Shown piece after piece: positions 2,559-64,000 of a DNA stretch of 64,000 nucleotides (position 1 is the first letter of the stretch; every line of letters starts with the position of its first letter). A program made the position numbers and the translations under genes. The stretch spans positions 55,323 through 119,322 of IMG/VR virus record IMGVR_UViG_3300038696_000205; one strand, given 5' to 3'. Under the pieces are notes generated by a model that did no database searches, had not been told where the DNA came from, and saw nothing but the letters and a program-made list of their open reading frames with translations. The stretch comes from a virus.

Positions 2559-3584
2559 TTATTTAAAGAAATATTTGAAATTTTCTCCACCATAAGCATC
2601 CTTGGTCAAATTAATCATTTCGCCAACACTATAATCTCGTTCCTCAATCTTAAATTCATTAACGAAATCCTTGACTCCGAACGAACATGCGCCAGTAATT
2701 ATCCTGTAACATTCTATCGCATCACCAAATGACAATACGTTATCCAACGTTAACCCTTTGTAATCTTCCACACACTTATTACTTATCTTAAATAATAAAT
2801 CAAGTTTAGCTTCTTTAATGGTTTCACCGTGCGCCCATCTATCCTCACCATCGGTAACTAAATAAAGTTTATTCTCATCGCTTAATTTCTTCACCTCATA
2901 TACATTACCCCGTTTATGTAGCACTTCGGTGAACACCCCATCAACCTTTACGTATTTCCCATCTTGCCAAAATATTGCCTTTGGGGGTAGACTTTTTTGA
3001 ATCGATGTAACCTTATCCAAATATAAGTGACCACCCACCGTAGGGTTAAATCCTTCTGGAATCATTGTAAGTGAGTTTAAGTCTAAACTACCCCCAACCG
3101 TAGGATTAAATCCTTCTGGAATATTTTTAAGTGACCTTAAGTATAAACTACCATCCACCATAGGATTAAACCCCCCTGGAATCGATTTTAGACTACTTAA
3201 ATCTAAAGTACCACCAACGGTGGGATTGAATCCTTCTGGAATCGATGTAAGTTTATATAAATCTAAATCACCACCAACGGTGGGGTTGAATCCATCTGGA
3301 ATAGAGATGAGATTTTCTAAAAATAAACCCCCACTAACGATTGGGTTAAATCCTTCTGGAATCGATGTTAGGTAACCTAAATATAAACTACCACCAACAA
3401 TTGGGTTAAAGCTATCTGGAATCGCCGTGATATTATTTAAGAATAAATGATTTCTGACTTTAGGATTAAACCCATCTGGAATCGATGTGAGTAAATTTAA
3501 GAATAAATTATCGTTAATTATATCAATTCCTAAGAATTGATTTTCCGTTATATTTGCATATTGCATTAATTCTTCTTTAGTCAT
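2559..3584 (-). CDS. LRR-like protein with 20-aa tandem repeats (about 9 units)
   Basis: LTSIPEGFNPTVGGxLxL repeats; N- and C-terminal domains shared with 5325..7013. Confidence 0.85.
   Translation of the reverse strand: MTKEELMQYANITENQFLGIDIINDNLFLNLLTSIPDGFNPKVRNHLFLNNITAIPDSFNPIVGGSLYLGYLTSIPEGFNPIVSGGLFLENLISIPDGFNPTVGGDLDLYKLTSIPEGFNPTVGGTLDLSSLKSIPGGFNPMVDGSLYLRSLKNIPEGFNPTVGGSLDLNSLTMIPEGFNPTVGGHLYLDKVTSIQKSLPPKAIFWQDGKYVKVDGVFTEVLHKRGNVYEVKKLSDENKLYLVTDGEDRWAHGETIKEAKLDLLFKISNKCVEDYKGLTLDNVLSFGDAIECYRIITGACSFGVKDFVNEFKIEERDYSVGEMINLTKDAYGGENFKYFFK
3000..3510 (-). repeat. 60-bp coding tandem repeat
   Basis: Units align at 60-nt period. Confidence 0.9.
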
Positions 3585-4597: not shown

Positions 4598-4873
4598 CTA
4601 TTCCAAATCGTTTGTTAGGATTTTATCGATTCTATCGATTCTATCCATAATTTCATCAATCTTTAAAAACCACATATTTTCATAGTAACCTCCATCACTA
4701 TCCATACCCTCTTGAAATTCCTTATTTTCGTAGCACCAACTTTTTAATTCTTTTAATTGGTCAAGATGAAATTTAATTGATTTTTCAGCACAAAGTTCAG
4801 CAAATATTTGAGTAGGTTGATTTTTATCTATTAGTTTTTTAAAGCTAACTATTAATTCTTCTTTTGTTTTCAT
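4598..4873 (-). CDS. hypothetical protein
   Basis: ORF track. Confidence 0.65.
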   Translation of the reverse strand: MKTKEELIVSFKKLIDKNQPTQIFAELCAEKSIKFHLDQLKELKSWCYENKEFQEGMDSDGGYYENMWFLKIDEIMDRIDRIDKILTNDLE

Positions 4874-5324: not shown

Positions 5325-7013
5325 TTATTGAAAGAAATGTTTAAATTGCTGACCACCATAGCTATCTTTGGTTAAATCAATCATTTCCTCAATCGTATAG
5401 TCCTTATGCTCGACCTTAAATTTCTTAACGAAATGCTTAACACCGAATGAACATGCACCAGTTATCACCCTGTAACACTCGATTGCTTCCTCAAAGGGAA
5501 ACACGCTATCTAGCGATAAGTCCTCATAATCCTTTTTGTTTCTGTTACTTATCTTGTAGATTAAATCTTCTTTTGCATCGTTTAATGTATCACCATGCGC
5601 CCACTTACCCTGACCATCGGTGATAAGATAAAATTCTATAGGGTTGTTTAATCTCTTAACCCTATGGACATTACCCCTTTTCTTAACCACCTCAACGAAT
5701 ATTCCATCGACCGATATATATTTACCATCTTGCCAAAATAACGGTTGCCCGTTTAGTTTGGTGTGATTAATATATTTAAGATTTTCTAAATATAAATTAC
5801 CACCAACAATTGGGTTAAAGCTATCTGGAATCGATGTAATCTTACATAAAATTAAACGACCACCAACGATTGGATTAAATCCTTCTGGAATCGATTTTAG
5901 ACTACTTAAATCTAAAGTACCACCAACGGTGGGATTGAATCCTTTTGGAATCGATATTAGACTACTTAAATCTAAATCACCACCAACGGTGGGATTGAAT
6001 CCTTCTGGAATCGATGTAAGTTTATATAAATCTAAATCACCACCAACGGTGGGGTTGAATCCATCTGGAATAGAGATGAGATTATTTAAAAATAAATTAC
6101 GACCAACGTTCGGATTAAATCCTTCTGGAATCGATGTGAGATTATTTAAAAATAAACTACCACCAACAATTGGGTTAAAGCTATCTGGAATCGATGTGGG
6201 ATTATTTAAAAATAAATCACCACCAACGGTGGGGTTGAATCCATCTGGAATAGAGATGAGATTATTTAAAAATAAATTACGACCAACGTTCGGATTAAAT
6301 CCTTCTGGAATCGATGTAAGTTTATATAAATCTAAATCACCACCAACGGTGGGATTGAATCCTTCTGGAATCGATGTAAGTTTATATAAATCTAAATCAC
6401 CACCAACGGTGGGGTTAAATCCTTCTGGAATTGATGTAAGCTTACTTAAATCTAAAGTAGAACCCACCGTAGGATTAACCCCCTTTGGAATCGATGTGAG
6501 TGAATCTAAATATAAACTACCCCCGACCGTGGGGTTAAAATCCTCTTGCATTGTTGTGACTGAATCTAAATATAAACTACCTCCAACCGTAGGGCTAAAC
6601 CCCTTTGGAATCGATTTAAGCTTACTTAAATGTAAGCTTAGACCCACCGTGGGTTTGAACCCATCTGGAATTGATGTAAGCTTATTTAAATATAAAGTAC
6701 CCCCGACTGTAAGGTTAAACCCTTCTTGCATTGATGTGATATTATCTAAGTATAAATCACGACCAACCTTAAGATTAAATCCTTCTGGAATCGATGTAAG
6801 TGAACTTAAATATAAATTACCCCCAACTGTGGGGTTAAACCCTTCTGGAATCGATGTAAGTGAATCTAAGTATAAATCACGACCGACTTTAAGGTTAAAT
6901 CCCTCTGGAATCGATGTGAGATTATTTAAAAATAAATTCCCGATAATTGCATCAATACCTAAGAATTCATTTTCGGTTATATCTGCATATTCTAATAAAT
7001 TTTCTTTAGTCAT
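5325..7013 (-). CDS. LRR-like protein with 20-aa tandem repeats (about 19-20 units)
   Basis: LTSIPEGFNPTVGGxLxL repeats; paralog of 2559..3584. Confidence 0.85.
   Translation of the reverse strand: MTKENLLEYADITENEFLGIDAIIGNLFLNNLTSIPEGFNLKVGRDLYLDSLTSIPEGFNPTVGGNLYLSSLTSIPEGFNLKVGRDLYLDNITSMQEGFNLTVGGTLYLNKLTSIPDGFKPTVGLSLHLSKLKSIPKGFSPTVGGSLYLDSVTTMQEDFNPTVGGSLYLDSLTSIPKGVNPTVGSTLDLSKLTSIPEGFNPTVGGDLDLYKLTSIPEGFNPTVGGDLDLYKLTSIPEGFNPNVGRNLFLNNLISIPDGFNPTVGGDLFLNNPTSIPDSFNPIVGGSLFLNNLTSIPEGFNPNVGRNLFLNNLISIPDGFNPTVGGDLDLYKLTSIPEGFNPTVGGDLDLSSLISIPKGFNPTVGGTLDLSSLKSIPEGFNPIVGGRLILCKITSIPDSFNPIVGGNLYLENLKYINHTKLNGQPLFWQDGKYISVDGIFVEVVKKRGNVHRVKRLNNPIEFYLITDGQGKWAHGDTLNDAKEDLIYKISNRNKKDYEDLSLDSVFPFEEAIECYRVITGACSFGVKHFVKKFKVEHKDYTIEEMIDLTKDSYGGQQFKHFFQ
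5790..6950 (-). repeat. 60-bp coding tandem repeat with exact multi-unit duplications
   Basis: 60-nt period; blocks such as 6061-6135 and 6241-6315 are identical. Confidence 0.9.
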
Positions 7014-46911: not shown

Positions 46912-46943
46912 ATTATTCCTTATTTTTATTAACTTTCGGGCAT

Positions 46944-46981
46944 AAAAAAAGCCCAGTTAAAATCGGTTGATTAAACTGGGC
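46944..46981 (-). terminator. attenuator terminator C
   Basis: GCCCAGTT-loop-AACTGGGC-TTTTTTT. Confidence 0.9.
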
Positions 46982-47010
46982 CTGTTGTATTAGATTTAAG
47001 TATATGTATC

Positions 47011-47121
47011 TTATATTCCTGTTTCGGTTTTAGATGACGTTATACACAACATTCCCAGTCTGCTCGGCTTTTGGCCTTGCGGATACTGCTTCCCTTGATA
47101 TGTAGTTGTATAATTTTTCAT
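47011..47121 (-). CDS. leader peptide C (36 aa) MKNYTTTYQGKQYPQGQKPSRLGMLCITSSKTETGI
   Basis: Hand translation; A-rich start; residues 4-19 only Y/T/Q/G/K/P. Confidence 0.85.
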   Translation of the reverse strand: MKNYTTTYQGKQYPQGQKPSRLGMLCITSSKTETGI

Positions 47122-47139
47122 CTTATTTTTCTTTGTGGG

Positions 47140-47175
47140 TTTTAACCCTTTGTTATTAAATATACACAAATATAC
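47140..47175 (-). promoter_or_regulatory. promoter of leader C (TATATTTG + TATATTTAATAACAAAGGGTTAAA)
   Basis: Near-identical block upstream of leader A (61025-61060). Confidence 0.7.
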
Positions 47176-47303
47176 TAAAAAGTACATTAATGTGCAACTA
47201 TTTTTATTATTTTTTTTTAATTAACTGATAATCAGTTATTTTTATAATTCAGAATGGTCTTTTTTCTACATTTGAGAGTTTAGATGCTGAAATCATTCTT
47301 TAG

Positions 47304-47372
47304 TCAGGCCAGGAGAATCGACACTCCATCTTCATCCCCAATGGATGATATCTTCAATTAGACCATGGCCCG
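47304..47372 (-). tRNA. atypical tRNA: Pro-type acceptor (C1:G72, A73), loop CA-TTG-GG
   Basis: TCATC-CATTGGG-GATGA. Confidence 0.55.
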
Positions 47373-47378
47373 TTGCAG

Positions 47379-47443
47379 TTGAACTAGTGGGATTCGATAC
47401 CACATTACCTAATTAAGGTGACTTCAATTAGTCGATAGTTCAA
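47379..47443 (-). ncRNA. reduced tRNA-like RNA (short anticodon arm)
   Basis: Acceptor TTGAACT/AGTTCAA, D- and T-arm-like hairpins, ACCT-TAATT-AGGT. Confidence 0.4.
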
Positions 47444-47444
47444 G

Positions 47445-48235
47445 ATGAATGCTTGAGTGGTGGGCATATATGTTAAAATTTAATAGGGTTTCCCCTCTTA
47501 CACACACCTTTCATTTCTGTCAGGTAGTCAACATTAAGGTAGCATTAGAGTTGCTATTACTCACTACACACGTTAATATAAACTTTCTTCAACACCCAGT
47601 CTCCTTGCGAGAGTTCAGAGGGGCAAACCTCTTACTAATGACATTTACTAGAAGTTTCAGTCTTGGCCTTGTGAGCTTACTAACTGCCTATATATTTCAA
47701 TAGGATAACTTAATTTTCAACGTATGTTCAACAGAACTTTTACTTTTGTTATCATTTAAAGATATTTTTTTGTTATTCTCTTAAATCCAGGATGTGTCTG
47801 TTGATTGACAATCGTACTACCTTTTGAGTAGGTTAGATTACGACACCCCAATGTACCTTTTTACAGCTACGTCAATAAATTCACTTCAAACCTTATTGTA
47901 AGCCCCAACCGAAGTCAGGTAACTTACTAGTTATCCCATGAACTTTCATGATGAATTAAGCCTCTAGGATTTTTAATCCCCTTGACCCAATTCTAACTAT
48001 TCATTTATTTGTATTTCTACATCAACACCCAACGAGAAAATTGAATGTAGCACCTCCGAGCAGTGCTCTCTTAGTGCCGTAAATAGCTTGCTTACACGGA
48101 TTACATAAATGTAACGCAATAGCTGTTTCCGAAACTACTGCTTTATCCCATCACTGGATTATCCTTAATTACCCGAAGGTAAATGGAGCATAAGCACCCC
48201 AATTTTTTAATATTTTAAAGAACGTTTGTTTTTTA
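47445..48235 (-). ncRNA. large (~0.8 kb) structured ncRNA, GOLLD-like candidate
   Basis: No credible ORF, raised GC, many hairpins, own TATATTTG promoter at ~48243, lies among tRNAs; family not verified. Confidence 0.55.
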
Positions 48236-48296
48236 TTACTCTGCAAATATACTACTTTAATTTGATACTTGCAAGATTTTTTTAAAAAACTTTTTG

Positions 48297-48365
48297 TAGA
48301 GTCAGAAGATTTGATACTTCATTTCCAAGCTTCACGCCAGGTGTCCTAACTTAGATGATAACTCC
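48297..48365 (-). pseudogene. degenerate tRNA (anticodon TGA or GTG, uncertain)
   Basis: Acceptor GGAGTTA/TGACTCT; weak anticodon and T arms. Confidence 0.4.
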
Positions 48366-48407
48366 GTTTTTAATACTCGACAAATATAATACTTTATTTT
48401 TAAATAG

Positions 48408-52160: not shown

Positions 52161-52978
52161 TGATTCTAATGGGGGTCGAAAGTTATTTTTCGAAATATTT
52201 TTATATTTATTAATAAATATTAATTATGAGACCAATGTATACTGAAAATGAATTTAACTTAGCTAAACCAATTGATGAACTTCCATGTGAATGTTACAAT
52301 TGTAATAACATTTTTTATATTACAAAACACAAAATTCAAAGGTCGTTAAACAAAAATCATGTTAGCACTAGTCACTTTTGTTCTAATAAGTGTAAATTTA
52401 TAGCACAAAAAACAAAACAAAAAATAAACTGCACAAATTGTAATTTAGAATTTGAAAAATTTCCTAGTCAAATAAAAAAATCAAGCAATCATTATTGTAA
52501 TAAATCTTGTGCCGCCACCTATAACAATAAAAATAAAAAACACGGTACAAAACGCTCTAAACTTGAAATCTGGTTAGAAGAACAGTTAACAATTCTTTAC
52601 CCTAATTTAGTTATTCATTTTAATAGAAAAGATACAATCGGTTCTGAATTAGATATTTATTTCCCAACACTTAATTTAGCTATTGAACTTAATGGGATAT
52701 TCCATTATGAGCCAATATTTGGTATAGATAAATTAAGTAAAATACAAAAAAATGATAAATCTAAATCAAAAACTTGTATCGATGCAAAGATTGATTTATG
52801 TATAATCGATACATCAGCACAAAAATACTTTAAACCAAAGACATCACAAAAATATTTTGATATCATAATTAAAATTGTCAATGAACGTGTTAATATTTTA
52901 GTCACCTAAATTAGGTGTGCGATAACCACTACGTGCAAGTAGATTAACTTTGGTTATCTGATTCTAATGGGGGTCGAA
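52161..52978. mobile_element. endonuclease cassette flanked by a 20-bp direct repeat of the suppressor tRNA 3' end
   Basis: tgattctaatgggggtcgaa at 52161-52180 and 52959-52978. Confidence 0.7.
52226..52909 (+). CDS. zinc-ribbon + PD-(D/E)xK (Vsr-like) putative homing endonuclease
   Basis: CxxC repeats; ELDIYFP...AIELNGIFHY. Confidence 0.75.
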   Translation: MRPMYTENEFNLAKPIDELPCECYNCNNIFYITKHKIQRSLNKNHVSTSHFCSNKCKFIAQKTKQKINCTNCNLEFEKFPSQIKKSSNHYCNKSCAATYNNKNKKHGTKRSKLEIWLEEQLTILYPNLVIHFNRKDTIGSELDIYFPTLNLAIELNGIFHYEPIFGIDKLSKIQKNDKSKSKTCIDAKIDLCIIDTSAQKYFKPKTSQKYFDIIIKIVNERVNILVT

Positions 52979-53031
52979 CCCATAACCGTCATTTTTAGAG
53001 AATGCAGCTCTGCCAGTTGAGCTATAGAACC
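52959..53031 (-). tRNA. amber suppressor tRNA (anticodon CTA)
   Basis: Full cloverleaf; GCATT-CT-CTA-AA-AATGA; own TATATTTG promoter at ~53055. Confidence 0.85.
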
Positions 53032-55254: not shown

Positions 55255-55393
55255 TGGAGACGACAGGGTTCGAACCTGTGGCGCACCCTTCCTTCTAGGC
55301 CGCTCTACCTTAAGGTTAATTAATACCAATTTTATAGTTTTATGTACAATCATTCTATAAAATTCTCTATGCGACCCTCTGAGCTACATCTCC
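55255..55393 (-). pseudogene. tRNA-like gene with ~70-nt D-loop insertion and degenerate anticodon arm
   Basis: GGAGATG/CGTCTCC, GCTC...GAGC split by an AT-rich insert, canonical T-arm. Confidence 0.5.
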
Positions 55394-56605: not shown

Positions 56606-56679
56606 TGGAGGTAAACGGTATCGAACCGTCCTCAGGTTGGTTGCAAACCAATCTCGCCTTGCCTTGGACATGTACCCCC
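56606..56679 (-). tRNA. tRNA-Ala(TGC)
   Basis: G3:U70; TTGG-TT-TGC-AA-CCAA. Confidence 0.88.
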
Positions 56680-56692
56680 AATTATTAATAAC

Positions 56693-56722
56693 AAAAAAGC
56701 CCGAATCTTTCGAGTCGGGCTT
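56693..56722 (-). terminator. attenuator terminator B
   Basis: AAGCCCGACTC-GAAA-GATTCGGGC-TTTTTT. Confidence 0.9.
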
Positions 56723-56749
56723 GCTATTTAGTTTAGTTGTTATGAACAC

Positions 56750-56839
56750 TTAACTTATATCAATACTCGACCTTCCCAGGCTAAAATCCGCCTCGGCTGC
56801 TTCTATAGCAAAATCAAATATGTTGTTAAATGTTTTCAT
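56750..56839 (-). CDS. leader peptide B (29 aa) MKTFNNIFDFAIEAAEADFSLGRSSIDIS
   Basis: Hand translation; residues 8-19 are 11/12 F/D/A/E. Confidence 0.85.
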   Translation of the reverse strand: MKTFNNIFDFAIEAAEADFSLGRSSIDIS

Positions 56840-57103
56840 AATTTCTATTATTTATTCGTTAATGGATATTAATATCCTTTTTAATTAAATATGTGCTTTT
56901 TCTTTAAAAGTACATTTATTTTTTAATACACTGCAAATATACTACATTAAAATGTAATAATCAAGCTTTTTTGAAATTATTTTTAATTTATTTCAATGCT
57001 CTAATAAGAAGTTTGGATGTTGTCCAAGTTAATTCTCCGTTTGTTTCCATTTCCACTTCGGCAGAGTCTATGATTCTATTAATTTGTTTTTCCGATAATT
57101 CCT

Positions 57104-58862: not shown

Positions 58863-59265
58863 ATAAATTAGATTCTTTGAGCAATTTTATAATTATTGAT
58901 TTACCCTCACCTATATCCAACATAAATTTTGAATTAGGAAATAATACTATTTCCCCAGTGCCATACTTTTTATCTCTAGTTATAATTGAATCATAACCTT
59001 GTGACATTAATTTTTTAGTTAAATTTGCACCCTTTGCCTTAAATTTAGTGGATAAATCCATCTTATAGTCAATTGGGTTATTGTATTCATCTAAGTCAAT
59101 GTATAATGGTTTGGTTAAATTGGCCATACCACCTATCCAACCTGGAAATAGTTTGATGTTTCGGTCCCATTCTAACACATATGTACCCTTAGGTTCCACA
59201 TCCTGTCCAAATTCGGAACCGTGGTATTCAGCGGCTTCCATATTTTTCATTATACTTAACTGCAT
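58852..59265 (-). CDS. ADP-ribosyltransferase-like small protein
   Basis: YHGS ... GYDSII ... EIVLF pattern. Confidence 0.45.
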   Translation of the reverse strand: MQLSIMKNMEAAEYHGSEFGQDVEPKGTYVLEWDRNIKLFPGWIGGMANLTKPLYIDLDEYNNPIDYKMDLSTKFKAKGANLTKKLMSQGYDSIITRDKKYGTGEIVLFPNSKFMLDIGEGKSIIIKLLKESNLYER

Positions 59266-59326
59266 TTGTTTTATTTATAAATACTTTATAAAACAAAAAA
59301 GGCTGGTAAATACCAACCTTTTAATG

Positions 59327-59409
59327 TAACTCAGAAGGGATTCGAACCCTTAAAGGTCTGGCCTTCTTAGGGCCAATGCTCTGCCATTCGCTTTTTTACC
59401 CACTGAGCA
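59327..59409 (-). tRNA. atypical tRNA-Leu(AAG) with D-arm insertion and short variable loop
   Basis: TGGCC-CT-AAG-AA-GGCCA; GTAAAAAA inserted before the D-stem. Confidence 0.65.
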
Positions 59410-59417
59410 ATATAACA

Positions 59418-59501
59418 GGATGAGATTGTTAGTGGGTTTGAACCACCGAAAATAGAGTATAAGTCTAGTTTTTTATCCGTTTTCTTTTGCTGTAATCATC
59501 C
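59418..59501 (-). ncRNA. stem+CAGCAA module with anticodon arm (TAT) and T-arm only
   Basis: GGATGA-TTA-CAGCAA...TAGA-CT-TAT-AC-TCTA...GGTGG-TTCAAAC-CCAC...TCATCC. Confidence 0.55.
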
Positions 59502-59505
59502 TTTG

Positions 59506-59556
59506 TAACCTAGGTGAGATTCGAACTCACACGCCCTTTCGAGCATTGGTTTCTTA
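59506..59556 (-). pseudogene. 3' half of a tRNA-Leu
   Basis: TAA-GA-AACCAAT, long variable arm GCTC-GAAA-GGGC, T-arm, CTAGGTT; TAA is also the HNH stop. Confidence 0.65.
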
Positions 59557-60003
59557 TTTATTATAGTTTCCTTTATTTTTACCAGAATTATTTTCTGTTA
59601 ATGAATGACAATTAGGACATAAAATCTGTAAATTAGTAAAATTATTGTTATATTTATTACCATCAATGTGGTGTAATTCTATAGGTATTAATTTACCCAT
59701 CCACATATGTAAGTCACAATTTTCACATTTATGTTTTTTTACATTATCTTCTATTAACTTATTTTTTAATAAATTACTTTTAACACATGTTGACTTTGAA
59801 TATTCTAGAGCTGTTTTTCTATCGTTACTAATTTTAATATTTTTACCACCTTTATTACCACCATAAATAATACCCATTTTATCTAAATAAGAATTTAATG
59901 TTTCTGGTTTACACTTTAATTCTCTACATATAAACGCTTTAGATTGATTAATATCAATCCACCCATTAATTTCATCTTTTCTTTCTAATATATCTATTCT
60001 CAT
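59554..60003 (-). CDS. HNH homing endonuclease
   Basis: IELHHIDGNKYNN...ILCPNCHS. Confidence 0.88.
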   Translation of the reverse strand: MRIDILERKDEINGWIDINQSKAFICRELKCKPETLNSYLDKMGIIYGGNKGGKNIKISNDRKTALEYSKSTCVKSNLLKNKLIEDNVKKHKCENCDLHMWMGKLIPIELHHIDGNKYNNNFTNLQILCPNCHSLTENNSGKNKGNYNK

Positions 60004-60057
60004 ATTAATAAATACGGTACACATTAATGAAAGGCTACTTTAGTGTATAATAATTTG

Positions 60058-60140
60058 TAACTCAGAAGGGATTCGAACCCTTAAAGGTCTGGCCTTCTAA
60101 GGACCAATGCTCTGCCGTTCGCTTTTTTACCCACTGAGCT
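60058..60140 (-). tRNA. atypical tRNA-Leu(TAG), paralog of 59327..59409
   Basis: TGGTC-CT-TAG-AA-GGCCA; same GTAAAAAA insertion. Confidence 0.65.
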
Positions 60141-60148
60141 ATTTTAAA

Positions 60149-60174
60149 CGTGTCTACCATTCCACCACTAAGCC
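60149..60174 (-). pseudogene. 5' half of a tRNA-Leu
   Basis: GGCTTAG-TG-GTGGAATGGTAGACACG; acceptor strand pairs with CTAGGTT of the 59506 half. Confidence 0.6.
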
Positions 60175-60182
60175 ATAATATG

Positions 60183-60268
60183 TGGGCCAGAAGGGAGTCG
60201 AACCCTCACGCCCCTTACGAGGCACAGGGGCTTAAACCCTGTGTGTCTACCAGTTCCACCACTAGGGC
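60183..60268 (-). tRNA. tRNA-Leu(TAA), acceptor stem with two mismatches
   Basis: CAGGG-TT-TAA-GC-CCCTG; near-duplicate of 60600..60685. Confidence 0.7.
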
Positions 60269-60522
60269 AATTTGTGGGGGTTAACCCCACTGTTTATTTT
60301 TATAATTCTTCCAGTTATCATCTATACCATATTTCTTTCCATTACACCCTTTATTAGGTGGACAAAAATCACAGTGTAAATGTACTTTTCTCATAGTCAT
60401 TTTATACACACGACTATCTGTTGTGTTTTCGACAATTATTTTGTGTCTTCCCATAGTTTTGATGTGCTTTTATTTGCACTAACCAAAACCGTAAATTTTT
60501 ACATACATAATCATTAATTTTG

Positions 60523-60593
60523 TACCCCCAAACAGATTCGAACTGCTGACTCTTGCATGTAAGGCAAGGATGTTCCCATTACACTATAGGGGC
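60523..60593 (-). tRNA. tRNA-Val(TAC)
   Basis: CTTGC-CT-TAC-AT-GCAAG. Confidence 0.88.
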
Positions 60594-60599
60594 AATTTG

Positions 60600-60685
60600 T
60601 GGGCCAAGAGGGATTCGAACCCTCACGCCCCTTACGGAGCACAGGGGCTTAAACCCTGCGTGTCTACCAGTTCCACCACTGGCCC
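60600..60685 (-). tRNA. tRNA-Leu(TAA)
   Basis: Full cloverleaf with long variable arm. Confidence 0.92.
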
Positions 60686-60691
60686 AATTTG

Positions 60692-60766
60692 TACCTTTAG
60701 AGGGAGTCGAACCCCCGACCTTCACCTTGTAAAAATGTTGCTCTAAACCAACTGAGCTATAAAGGT
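60692..60766 (-). tRNA. tRNA-Val(TAC)
   Basis: Loop TT-TAC-AA; perfect acceptor. Confidence 0.82.
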
Positions 60767-60779
60767 ATTTCACTATTTG

Positions 60780-60862
60780 AGCCTAATGTTGGATTCGAAC
60801 CAACGTGAGATTTCTCTAGCGGTTTTGCAGACCGCCCCATTCGGCCACTCTGGCAATTAGGC
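60780..60862 (-). tRNA. tRNA-Cys(GCA) with long variable arm
   Basis: GCGGT-CT-GCA-AA-ACCGC, U73. Confidence 0.88.
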
Positions 60863-60863
60863 A

Positions 60864-60897
60864 TAAAAAAAGTCCGATGCTTTACAGTATCGGACTT
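60864..60897 (-). terminator. attenuator terminator A
   Basis: AAGTCCGAT-loop-ATCGGACT-TTTTTT. Confidence 0.9.
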
Positions 60898-60919
60898 TGT
60901 ATATTAATTAAAATTTAGT

Positions 60920-61003
60920 TCAATTAATTCCACAGCCCGACACGCTCACTAAGACTAGTAAACATAAACAAAGGACAGATAGTATGTTATTAATTGTTTT
61001 CAT
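60920..61003 (-). CDS. leader peptide A (27 aa) MKTINNILSVLCLCLLVLVSVSGCGIN
   Basis: Hand translation; residues 8-19 are 11/12 L/V/C. Confidence 0.82.
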   Translation of the reverse strand: MKTINNILSVLCLCLLVLVSVSGCGIN

Positions 61004-61024
61004 TTTTATTTTTATTTTATTAAA

Positions 61025-61060
61025 GGTTTAACCCTTTGTTATTAAATATAAGCAAATATA
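61025..61060 (-). promoter_or_regulatory. promoter of leader A (TATATTTG + TATATTTAATAACAAAGGGTTAAA)
   Basis: Shared with leader C upstream region. Confidence 0.7.
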
Positions 61061-61101
61061 GTAAAAGTATTCTTATTAGTCAAGTTTTTTTATAATTATT
61101 T

Positions 61102-61419
61102 TTATTTATTTCTATAATTGGAGTCTAAATGGTGTGTATAATTGCCCCAATGGAACCTATCGGTAACTTCACTCCTGAATTTATCCAAATCACATAGGTC
61201 TATCATATTCAAAGCATCTTCAAGGGCATCTTCATATTCTATAAATGAACCTGAAAATTCACAATTACCATTAAACTCGGAATAACCTAAATCGGTTCCA
61301 CTATCCACCATACACATACTCCAAAGGAATCCTGATGCGTTAGTATAAATAGAGACAATAATATTCTTAGTGTCCATTATCACCTTATGTCTCTTTGTTA
61401 GTTCAATTAATCTTTCCAT
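61102..61419 (-). CDS. hypothetical protein
   Basis: ORF track. Confidence 0.65.
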   Translation of the reverse strand: MERLIELTKRHKVIMDTKNIIVSIYTNASGFLWSMCMVDSGTDLGYSEFNGNCEFSGSFIEYEDALEDALNMIDLCDLDKFRSEVTDRFHWGNYTHHLDSNYRNK

Positions 61420-62755: not shown

Positions 62756-64000
62756 GTGAACTACCCACACACTAAAAAGATGTGTGGGCTTCCTGTACAA
62801 CGCATAGCCTAATGGCTTACGTTAGCGTACAAAGGGTTGTCCCTAACCCCGAAATTTTTTATATTATACGCAGCGTTAAGGTCTCTATCTATTGAATTAT
62901 TACACTTATCACAATTATATGTCCTATCTGAAAGTTTTAAATCTTTCTTGTGGTTTCCACAATTAGAACATACCTTACTGCTCGGTTCAAATCTACCAAT
63001 TACAACAAGGTTTTTACCTTGCCAATCAGTCTTATATTCAAGCATTGTTCTTAATTGTCGCCAACCCATATCAGATATTGCTTTAGCTAAATTATGGTTC
63101 TTAACCATATTACTAACAGCTAAATCTTCCAAAACAATCGTATCATACGTGTTTATTAATTCAGTAGATATTTTATGCAAGTAATCAGTCCTTTGGTTAC
63201 GGATTTTCTCTTGCAACAATGCTACTTTTAATTTTTGTTTCTCTCTATTTATTGAACCTTTCTGTTTTCTCGCAAGACTTCTTTGTTCGACTCTTAATCT
63301 CTTTTGTTGTGATTTAAAAAAGTTTTTATTTTCATATACCACACCATCGGAAGTTATTGCTAAATCTTTAATACCAAAATCAATACCAACAGACGTTTCT
63401 GTTTTTATACTTTTTTGTTTTGGTTTTTCTGTTTGTGTATCAACCAATATTGAAACAAAGTATTTACCAGTTACTGTCTTTGTTAGTGTAACTCTTTTAG
63501 GTAAACCTTTAAATTCTCTATGGTAGTCAATAGCAACTTCTTTAAGTTTAGGTAATTTTAAAATATTATCCTTAAATGATATTTCAAATCCTTGTGGAAA
63601 TGTAATTGACTGTTTAGAGTACTTATTTTTAAATTTAGGGAATTGACCCCTACCTTTAAAAAAGTTTTGGTACGCAGTATCTAAATTAATTATACTATGC
63701 TGTAAAACTTGACTTGGACACTCTTTAATGTAATCAAACTCTTTTCTTAATTCTGGTAGTTGTTTTATTAAGTCGTATTTAGATATTGATTTTTTGTTTG
63801 AAGCATATGCAACAGTCTTAGTTTCTAAACCAAGATTATACACCAACCTGTTCACACCAAAATACCTTTGTAATTGGTCTTTTTGGTCATCCGTTGGAAA
63901 TATTCTGTATTTGTATCCTTTTAGCATATATTATTAAATAGTCTAAACTTTTGTAAAAGTACAATATTTTTTATCTAAAATCAAGTTCTGGTTAAAATTT
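62756..64000 (-). mobile_element. IS200/IS605-family tnpB element (left end outside window)
   Basis: Right-end hairpin CCCACACATC..GTGTGTGGG followed by TAGTTCAC at 62756. Confidence 0.8.
62809..63927 (-). CDS. tnpB: RNA-guided endonuclease TnpB
   Basis: GIDFG, VLEDL, DRDLNAA, zinc finger. Confidence 0.95.
   Translation of the reverse strand: MLKGYKYRIFPTDDQKDQLQRYFGVNRLVYNLGLETKTVAYASNKKSISKYDLIKQLPELRKEFDYIKECPSQVLQHSIINLDTAYQNFFKGRGQFPKFKNKYSKQSITFPQGFEISFKDNILKLPKLKEVAIDYHREFKGLPKRVTLTKTVTGKYFVSILVDTQTEKPKQKSIKTETSVGIDFGIKDLAITSDGVVYENKNFFKSQQKRLRVEQRSLARKQKGSINREKQKLKVALLQEKIRNQRTDYLHKISTELINTYDTIVLEDLAVSNMVKNHNLAKAISDMGWRQLRTMLEYKTDWQGKNLVVIGRFEPSSKVCSNCGNHKKDLKLSDRTYNCDKCNNSIDRDLNAAYNIKNFGVRDNPLYANVSH

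Follow-up and report, generated by a model that had tools for sequence, protein, structure and literature searches.

The window examined here is the final 64 kb of a single virus contig (IMG/VR record IMGVR_UViG_3300038696_000205; 119,322 bp, 32% G+C), and the element in question is a short leader, leader A, that stands on the minus strand of this window directly ahead of a block of tRNA genes. Comparison of this leader with its counterparts in the same genome and in related phages indicates that it is most probably a ribosome-mediated (leader-peptide) transcription attenuator which gates the Cys/Val/Leu tRNA array behind it. An attenuator of this kind had been proposed by a sequence-only reading of the window, and the proposal gains support from sister units in the same genome, from relatives, from covariation and from the absence of a promoter that would bypass the terminator. 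The evidence consists of the anatomy of the unit, the statistics that relate leaders to arrays, an alternative pairing that covaries between units, and conservation.

Anatomy of unit A and its alternative pairing

Along the minus strand, unit A runs from a promoter through a hairpin and an A-rich run in the 5' untranslated region (5'-UTR), the leader open reading frame (ORF), an AU-rich hairpin and a terminator to the first tRNA gene, whose anticodon is GCA. The features of the unit and of its array are as follows (window positions).

61053-61083, minus strand: promoter, TTGACT followed after 17 nt by TATATTTG, which fits the -7 motif TAnnTTTG
61022-61037, minus strand: small 5'-UTR hairpin (AAAGG / CCTTT), seen on folding, then an A-rich stretch up to the ATG
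60920-61003, minus strand: leader ORF A, 27 codons and a TGA stop
60947-60982, minus strand: control codons 8-19, LSVLCLCLLVLV, Leu, Val or Cys in 11 of 12
60934-60943, minus strand: region 2, the upstream strand of the antiterminator, leader codons 21-24, 10 bp with 60887-60896
60903-60928, minus strand: AU-rich spacer hairpin, seen on folding, which contains the leader stop codon and juxtaposes regions 2 and 3
60865-60899, minus strand: intrinsic terminator, with region 3 (5' arm) at 60896-60887, region 4 (3' arm) at 60880-60871 and a run of seven T at 60871-60865
60779-60862, minus strand: first gene of the array, tRNA with anticodon GCA, long variable arm and U73 discriminator (ARAGORN and Rfam)
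60522-60766, minus strand: tRNA-Val(TAC), tRNA-Leu(TAA) and tRNA-Val(TAC) (ARAGORN and Rfam)
60182-60268, minus strand: second tRNA-Leu(TAA), with two mismatched acceptor pairs (ARAGORN and Rfam, 37.8 bits), possibly decaying
60058-60141, minus strand: non-canonical tRNA-like element with a TAG anticodon loop and acceptor, anticodon and T arms (no ARAGORN or Rfam call)
59328-59411, minus strand: near-identical copy with an AAG anticodon loop (no ARAGORN or Rfam call)
59297-59322, minus strand: terminator closing the array (consensus terminator scan)

The promoter layout, AAAAAnCTTG...TATATTTG, is repeated upstream of leaders B and C of the same genome and upstream of the leaders of relatives; we take the TAnnTTTG -7 motif to be that of a Bacteroidota-type promoter, and the host is probably flavobacterial. 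Units B and C also carry a hairpin at the same place as that in the 5'-UTR of unit A, with a different sequence. The leader A ATG lies around 45 nt downstream of the predicted transcription start, after the A-rich stretch. Read on the strand, leader codons 8-19 are those listed in the sequence-only reading (CTA TCT GTC CTT TGT TTA TGT TTA CTA GTC TTA GTG). A 12-codon stretch as rich in Cys, Val and Leu as this (11/12) occurs in 2 of 448 small ORFs in the genome, leader A included; taken alone this richness is only suggestive, since hydrophobic mini-ORFs exist, and the choice of Leu codons in leader A is not by itself statistically distinctive.

The terminator hairpin (60899-60870) has a predicted energy of -14.0 kcal/mol and is followed by seven T; its long loop and an internal A-C mismatch caused the consensus terminator scan to miss it. 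Only 2 nt separate the end of the T run from the first tRNA gene at 60862, a gap too short to hold a promoter, and a search for the TAnnTTTG motif on the same strand within array A found none. Since there is neither room for a promoter after the T run nor such a motif inside the array, the whole array would depend on the decision made at this terminator.

The 10-bp helix that the earlier reading placed between 60934-60943 and the 5' arm of the terminator at 60887-60896 is real. It is formed by GTGTCGGGCT (60943-60934) and AGTCCGATAC (60896-60887), with eight Watson-Crick and two G-U pairs, and its duplex energy of -16.7 kcal/mol was reached by none of 300 shuffled sequences, which averaged -7.4 kcal/mol. 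When region 2 of unit A was set against dissimilar terminator arms from other units the mean was -11.4 kcal/mol, and after normalisation 1 of 40 was as good as its own arm. The antiterminator is the minimum-free-energy fold both of the nascent leader A RNA, in which the 3' arm of the terminator has not yet been made, and of the full 98-nt and 186-nt RNAs; the 98-nt fold has an energy of -27.3 kcal/mol (z -4.15). When the leader was masked to 12 nt beyond its stop codon, in imitation of a ribosome, the terminator alone formed.

Leaders, arrays and covariation in sister units and relatives

The same genome holds two further units, B (56690-56965, minus strand) and C (46940-47200, minus strand), each of which repeats the promoter of unit A, has a UTR resembling that of unit A and carries a mini-ORF and a terminator. 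Every main block of tRNA genes in this phage and in its relatives has a unit of this design ahead of it. Leader B (ORF at 56839) begins MKTFNNI where leader A begins MKTINNI, and its control stretch, FDFAIEAAEADF, lies ahead of a tRNA-Ala(TGC)-like gene and of tRNA genes for Phe, Glu, Asp and Glu. Residues 4-19 of leader C (ORF at 47121) consist exclusively of Y, T, Q, G, K and P, and its array comprises Pro, Gln (three), Tyr, Lys (two), Thr (two) and Gly (three). A search of the 448 small ORFs for 12-codon stretches that equal those of leaders B and C in cognate content gave one for unit B, which is leader B itself, and none for unit C, whose leader is not among the 448. The tRNA-Ala(TGC)-like gene (56610-56687, minus strand) was read by eye and is called by neither ARAGORN nor Rfam; it has a G3-U70 pair and an unusual D arm.

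A near-identical contig in IMG/VR (L001) has a unit B whose leader differs in only two codons, yet whose terminator and tRNA-Ala are different; the alternative pairing TCGAGT / ACTCGA is nevertheless retained in it.

For a wider comparison, homologues of a 222-aa protein encoded between arrays A and B were aligned and 80 IMG/VR loci were fetched, and further tRNA regions were added from five large contigs (160-370 kb). Units were collected by an unsupervised finder that called a hairpin with a T run, preceded by an ATG-initiated ORF of 15-50 codons and followed by a tRNA within 900 nt; the distance from ORF to hairpin was at most 45 nt (110 nt in a first pass, later filtered to 10-40 nt). The tRNA sets given by ARAGORN are incomplete, and clustering at 2 kb at times merges adjacent arrays. 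The finder yielded 41 non-redundant units, from contigs across which the 222-aa neighbour protein is 40-65% identical, and the layout of promoter, mini-ORF, terminator and array is common to all of them. Units within a class are phylogenetically related, so that per-unit p-values overstate their independence; the tests at the level of class and of terminator type described below were designed to limit this effect.

The composition of the leader follows that of the array in each class and phage that was examined. The recurrent classes number four ({C,V,L}, {F,E,D,A}, {P,Q,Y,K,T,G} and {S,H,W,I,M,N,R}) and jointly cover all 20 amino acids. Three of them are present in the contig studied here; a leader of the Ser/His/Trp/Ile/Met/Asn/Arg class was not found in it, the contig ending 3 kb upstream of leader A and perhaps being incomplete. 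Where a phage partitions its tRNAs differently, the leaders follow the partition, as in L025 (A/D/P/G/M and N/H/T/K/I/L), L066 (eleven amino acids) and L080 (nine). Leaders and array sets were scored in an 11 x 11 matrix: every leader did best with its own set, which was matched or surpassed by no set other than one of the same class from another phage, and in a permutation test on eight distinct classes the true pairing was alone among 40,320 in attaining the observed sum. The cultured Cellulophaga phages phi38:1 (L100, NC_021796.1) and Calle_1 (L099), 73-kb members of the Pervagoviridae, have three units with other partitions again; one of their leaders carries the stretch RLLHQEPLEQLRLP ahead of tRNAs for Pro, Glu, Gln, His, Leu and Arg. 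The leaders of phi38:1 lie at 3284-3361, 4745-4834 and 5988-6077, the first of them inside an ORF annotated as hypothetical protein gp066. The second Cellulophaga-phage leader also has Tyr and Cys codons, without an annotated Tyr or Cys tRNA behind it.

The Cys/Val/Leu leaders of four other phages are homologous to leader A, conserve its frame with switches of codon box that preserve Leu, and share the core L-C-L/S-L-V. Among homologous leaders Leu or Ser is kept despite switches between codon boxes (TTA/CTA/CTC/TTG for Leu; TCG/AGT/AGC for Ser). A kept amino acid with a changed codon box suggests that the leaders are translated. The arrays of the same four phages also open with a long-arm tRNA(GCA) and contain canonical Leu(tag), (aag), (caa) or (gag) genes, and relatives with these genes use the corresponding CTA, CTT, TTG and CTC codons in their leaders; as codon-level evidence this match is suggestive only.

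For leader A itself the match at the level of codons is weaker than that at the level of amino acids. Of the downstream tRNAs that the earlier reading had named, Cys(GCA), both Val(TAC) and both Leu(TAA) are called by ARAGORN and Rfam, whereas Leu(TAG) and Leu(AAG) are called by neither; the exact cognates claimed for CTA and CTT therefore rest on unverified tRNA-like genes. These two elements went uncalled by the Rfam tRNA model RF00005 even at E<=5, and neither was recognised as a canonical cloverleaf. They differ from each other at three positions, the wobble base among them, and possess acceptor, anticodon and T stems and an A73-type discriminator; their D region is aberrant, around 9 additional nt separating the D stem from the acceptor stem. 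In Cellulophaga phage Calle_1 a homologue (L098 395-478) shows compensatory changes in the acceptor and T stems. The elements are probably real RNAs and putative decoders. If they are counted, 6 of the 6 Leu codons in leader A are readable; with the ARAGORN set the number is 3 of 6. The Calle_1 homologue overlaps two conflicting tRNA annotations. The tRNA(GCA) that opens array A combines a Cys-like U73 with a long variable arm as in type II tRNAs; the same form, of 82-87 nt, starts Cys/Val/Leu arrays in three further phages, and these have ordinary tRNA-Cys genes of 71-74 nt elsewhere as well.

Covariation of the alternative pairing was measured by comparing the energies of cognate and non-cognate duplexes; a MAFFT alignment of 19 units was not used, the terminators in it being out of register. 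For 34 of the 41 units, the leader segment that pairs best with the 5' arm of the terminator begins at codons 18-23, just past the control codons, and the sequences that pair are diverse: GTCGGG/CCCGAC, GGTCAAGG/CCTTGACC, GTTCGAGC/GCTCGAAC and ATCCGAAGG/CCTTCGGAT are examples. Cognate duplexes were on average 4.4 kcal/mol better than non-cognate ones formed with dissimilar terminators, and for each of the 23 terminator types the cognate pair came out ahead (sign test, 1.2e-7). These types were defined by clustering on Hamming distance, single linkage on shared 6-mers having merged nearly everything. Furthermore, the C-terminal portions of the Cys/Val/Leu leaders, which hold region 2, are unrelated to each other as peptides, as would be expected if selection acts on the pairing of the RNA.

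Proposed mechanism and competing explanations

We infer that the leader ORF is translated and that ribosome and polymerase are coupled in the host; which way the switch works, and what triggers it physiologically, are likewise inferences. Transcription would begin near 61050, and the 27-codon ORF would be translated as the RNA is synthesised. When decoding of the Leu, Val and Cys codons is fast, the ribosome would trail the polymerase over codons 21-24 and hide region 2; the arms of the terminator would then pair and transcription would halt at the T run, 2 nt short of the first tRNA. When charged tRNA-Leu, -Val or -Cys is scarce, the ribosome would stall within codons 8 to around 16 and leave region 2 free to pair with the emerging 5' arm of the terminator, so that no terminator forms and the polymerase enters the tRNA genes. 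The newly made tRNAs would lift the stall, which amounts to a negative feedback loop. The same device, with different sets of codons, would gate the other tRNA blocks of this phage and of its relatives.

Several observations weigh against this mechanism. The first concerns the folds, in which a 1:2 anti-antiterminator was sought and not found; a small hairpin over codons 14-19 excludes region 2. An untranslated leader is consequently predicted to read through, unlike that of trp; the 1:2 element is a feature of trp-type attenuators and is not common to all. In many relatives region 2 ends 20-39 nt ahead of the stop codon, out of reach of a ribosome halted there, and the switch would thus need tight kinetic coupling of ribosome and polymerase. 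The control codons, for their part, reach within 3 nt of region 2, so that a ribosome stalled at one of the final three or four would hide part of it. The alternative pairing of unit B is weak (z -0.9), with 32 of 35 non-cognate arms equal to or better than its own. Finally, the correspondence of leader and array is not complete: gain and loss of tRNAs within a class are tracked imperfectly by the leaders, the cognates for CTA and CTT are the non-canonical tRNA-like elements, and leader A contains three Ser codons with no Ser tRNA in its array.

Some of these points bear on a different explanation, in which translation of the ORF matters but a stall alters the processing or stability of the precursor, for example by changing how accessible the 5' leader of the first tRNA is to RNase, or in which the polarity of the switch is reversed. 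The hairpin lies 2 nt from the 5' end of the tRNA and would thus be part of the RNase P substrate, and the distance of region 2 from the stop codon in many units, as well as the failure to find a 1:2 element in the folds, would fit such a role. However, the hairpins are canonical intrinsic terminators with runs of T5-T9, and it is specifically the 5' arm of the terminator that covaries with the leader, a pattern characteristic of termination and antitermination; the explanation is therefore unlikely.

A constitutive, leaky terminator might instead insulate or dampen the tRNA array, with a mini-ORF that is there by chance or is non-functional. AT-rich DNA commonly contains small hydrophobic ORFs, one further small ORF among the 448 is as rich in Cys, Val and Leu as leader A, and the codon-level match of leader A is not significant alone. 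Against this, the ORFs are conserved in frame over distant phages with codon-box switches that preserve the amino acid, the composition of the leader follows the array in every class, and a segment within the ORF covaries with the terminator. Taken together these make a passive terminator very improbable.

Equally hard to sustain is a T-box-like or protein-mediated antiterminator that senses uncharged tRNA, or some other factor, on the leader RNA without translation. The antiterminator is the predicted default fold, so some factor must favour termination, a point in favour of such a sensor. Neither the T-box nor any other Rfam family was matched by the leader, even at E<=5 (for the T-box covariance model, RF00230, the search covered 59200-61150), and the leaders are kept as frames rich in many codons, which is required by no known switch that binds RNA or protein. 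Rfam rows for FopS, Yfr10 and L20-leader were weak, far below their gathering scores, and were rejected.

That the ORF might specify a secreted or lipoprotein-type peptide had been raised in the sequence-only reading as the case against its own proposal. This idea, like that of some other hydrophobic micro-protein with no connection to tRNA, can be dismissed as extremely improbable: leader A does have K2, a hydrophobic core and a VSGC that fits the lipobox pattern, but only three residues follow the Cys, the VSGC is unique to leader A and the four homologous leaders lack a lipobox, a lack of conservation on which the signal-peptide explanation fails, and leaders B and C, with the same start and architecture, are acidic or polar.

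Genomic setting, known systems and significance

The window has around 24 tRNA genes, all of them encoded by the minus strand, in the stretch from 43.9 to 60.9 kb; ORFs for HNH and GIY-YIG endonucleases are scattered among them. Comparison of neighbouring proteins with GenBank did not find a close cultured relative. Within 59508-60176 (minus strand) lie an orphan 5' piece of a Leu-type tRNA (around 60176-60150) and an orphan 3' piece of a long-arm tRNA (around 59550-59508), which flank an HNH endonuclease ORF (59554-60024). In L001 (11697-12420) a different endonuclease-like ORF stands in place of the body of the second tRNA-Val. From these arrangements it appears that homing endonucleases are remodelling the tRNA arrays. 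At 1.8 kb upstream of leader A there is an ORF of the TnpB/OrfB_IS605 type (62809-63927, minus strand; Pfam E 9e-29), which includes a Cas12f-like TNB domain. Elsewhere, a match to the tRNA model at 55255-55393 (minus strand) is 139 nt long, scores 31.5 bits and has an insertion of around 65 nt in the region of the D-loop. At 47300-48400 (minus strand) two strong promoters (-7 boxes at 48388 and 48251) precede around 1 kb of G+C-richer sequence, for which there was no Rfam match and, on reading the strand (ORFs for this stretch not being listed), no obvious long ORF; it may be one or more structured RNAs. A tRNA with the anticodon CTA, of the amber-suppressor type (52959-53031, minus strand), has its own promoter and neither leader nor terminator, and the solo CTA, Met and Cys tRNAs of relatives are likewise without leaders.

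Multivalent leader-peptide attenuators are known from enterobacteria, where ilvGMEDA responds to Leu, Val and Ile and thr to Thr and Ile; trpL, hisL, leuL and pheL belong to the same family of devices. The phage units share with them a short leader in which the relevant codons are over-represented, an intrinsic terminator, a competing helix that engages the 5' arm of the terminator, the position of the ribosome as the presumed signal, and the coverage of several amino acids by one leader. They differ in that tRNAs rather than enzymes would be controlled, that a single leader covers up to 7-11 amino acids, that no 1:2 anti-antiterminator was found, that they are encoded by phages with Bacteroidota-type promoters, and that four recurrent classes jointly cover all 20 amino acids. 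The pheST attenuator of E. coli, with its pheM leader, controls a synthetase and responds to charged tRNA; it resembles the phage units as leader-peptide attenuation of a component of the translation apparatus, and differs from them in its target, in responding to one amino acid and in belonging to a cellular genome. The E. coli tRNA-Phe gene pheU was considered as a cellular precedent and dropped: in K-12 a promoter lies directly before the tRNA, with no leader ORF. T-box riboswitches, too, make read-through of a terminator before translation-related genes depend on how much charged tRNA is available; in contrast, they bind uncharged tRNA directly and have no need of a ribosome.

The published literature was searched for leader-peptide control of tRNA genes and none was found, the only inducible tRNA array encountered being the trn operon of Anabaena sp. 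PCC 7120, a long array with a ribbon-helix-helix repressor, TrcR, at its promoter (PMC8421152; PMC10272220). It is alike in being a supernumerary tRNA array that is silent until translation is impaired; its control is by the repressor, and the paper does not mention attenuation or a leader peptide. RNA-seq of phi38:1 infection has been published, in a transcriptome paper that is silent on leader-peptide control of tRNAs (PMC5335546). Leader-peptide attenuation is known for amino-acid operons and for pheST, and what would be new here is its application to tRNA genes.

Phage tRNA genes are usually seen as constitutive supplements to codon usage, or as spares against defences that cleave tRNA, and to our knowledge essentially nothing is known of their regulation. 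The comparisons made here suggest that this phage probably makes each set of tRNAs just when ribosomes run short of that set. If so, the phage would gauge the speed of decoding directly and produce tRNAs on demand, and attenuation would extend to tRNA genes with far more amino acids per leader than in the classical cases. Since the units are present in the cultured phages phi38:1 and Calle_1, the idea is directly testable, and the modular cassettes of promoter, leader and terminator could act as sensors for the supply of specific charged tRNAs. A broader and tentative suggestion, which we regard as possible rather than likely, is that the leaders together form a multi-channel read-out of decoding capacity, each sensing for its own set of codons whether host tRNAs have been depleted or cut and replacing the set affected; in relatives with four classes such a read-out would cover all 20 amino acids. 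If this were true, the tRNA arrays of these phages would be a self-regulating counter-defence, for example against anticodon nucleases, and not a simple supplement to codon usage.

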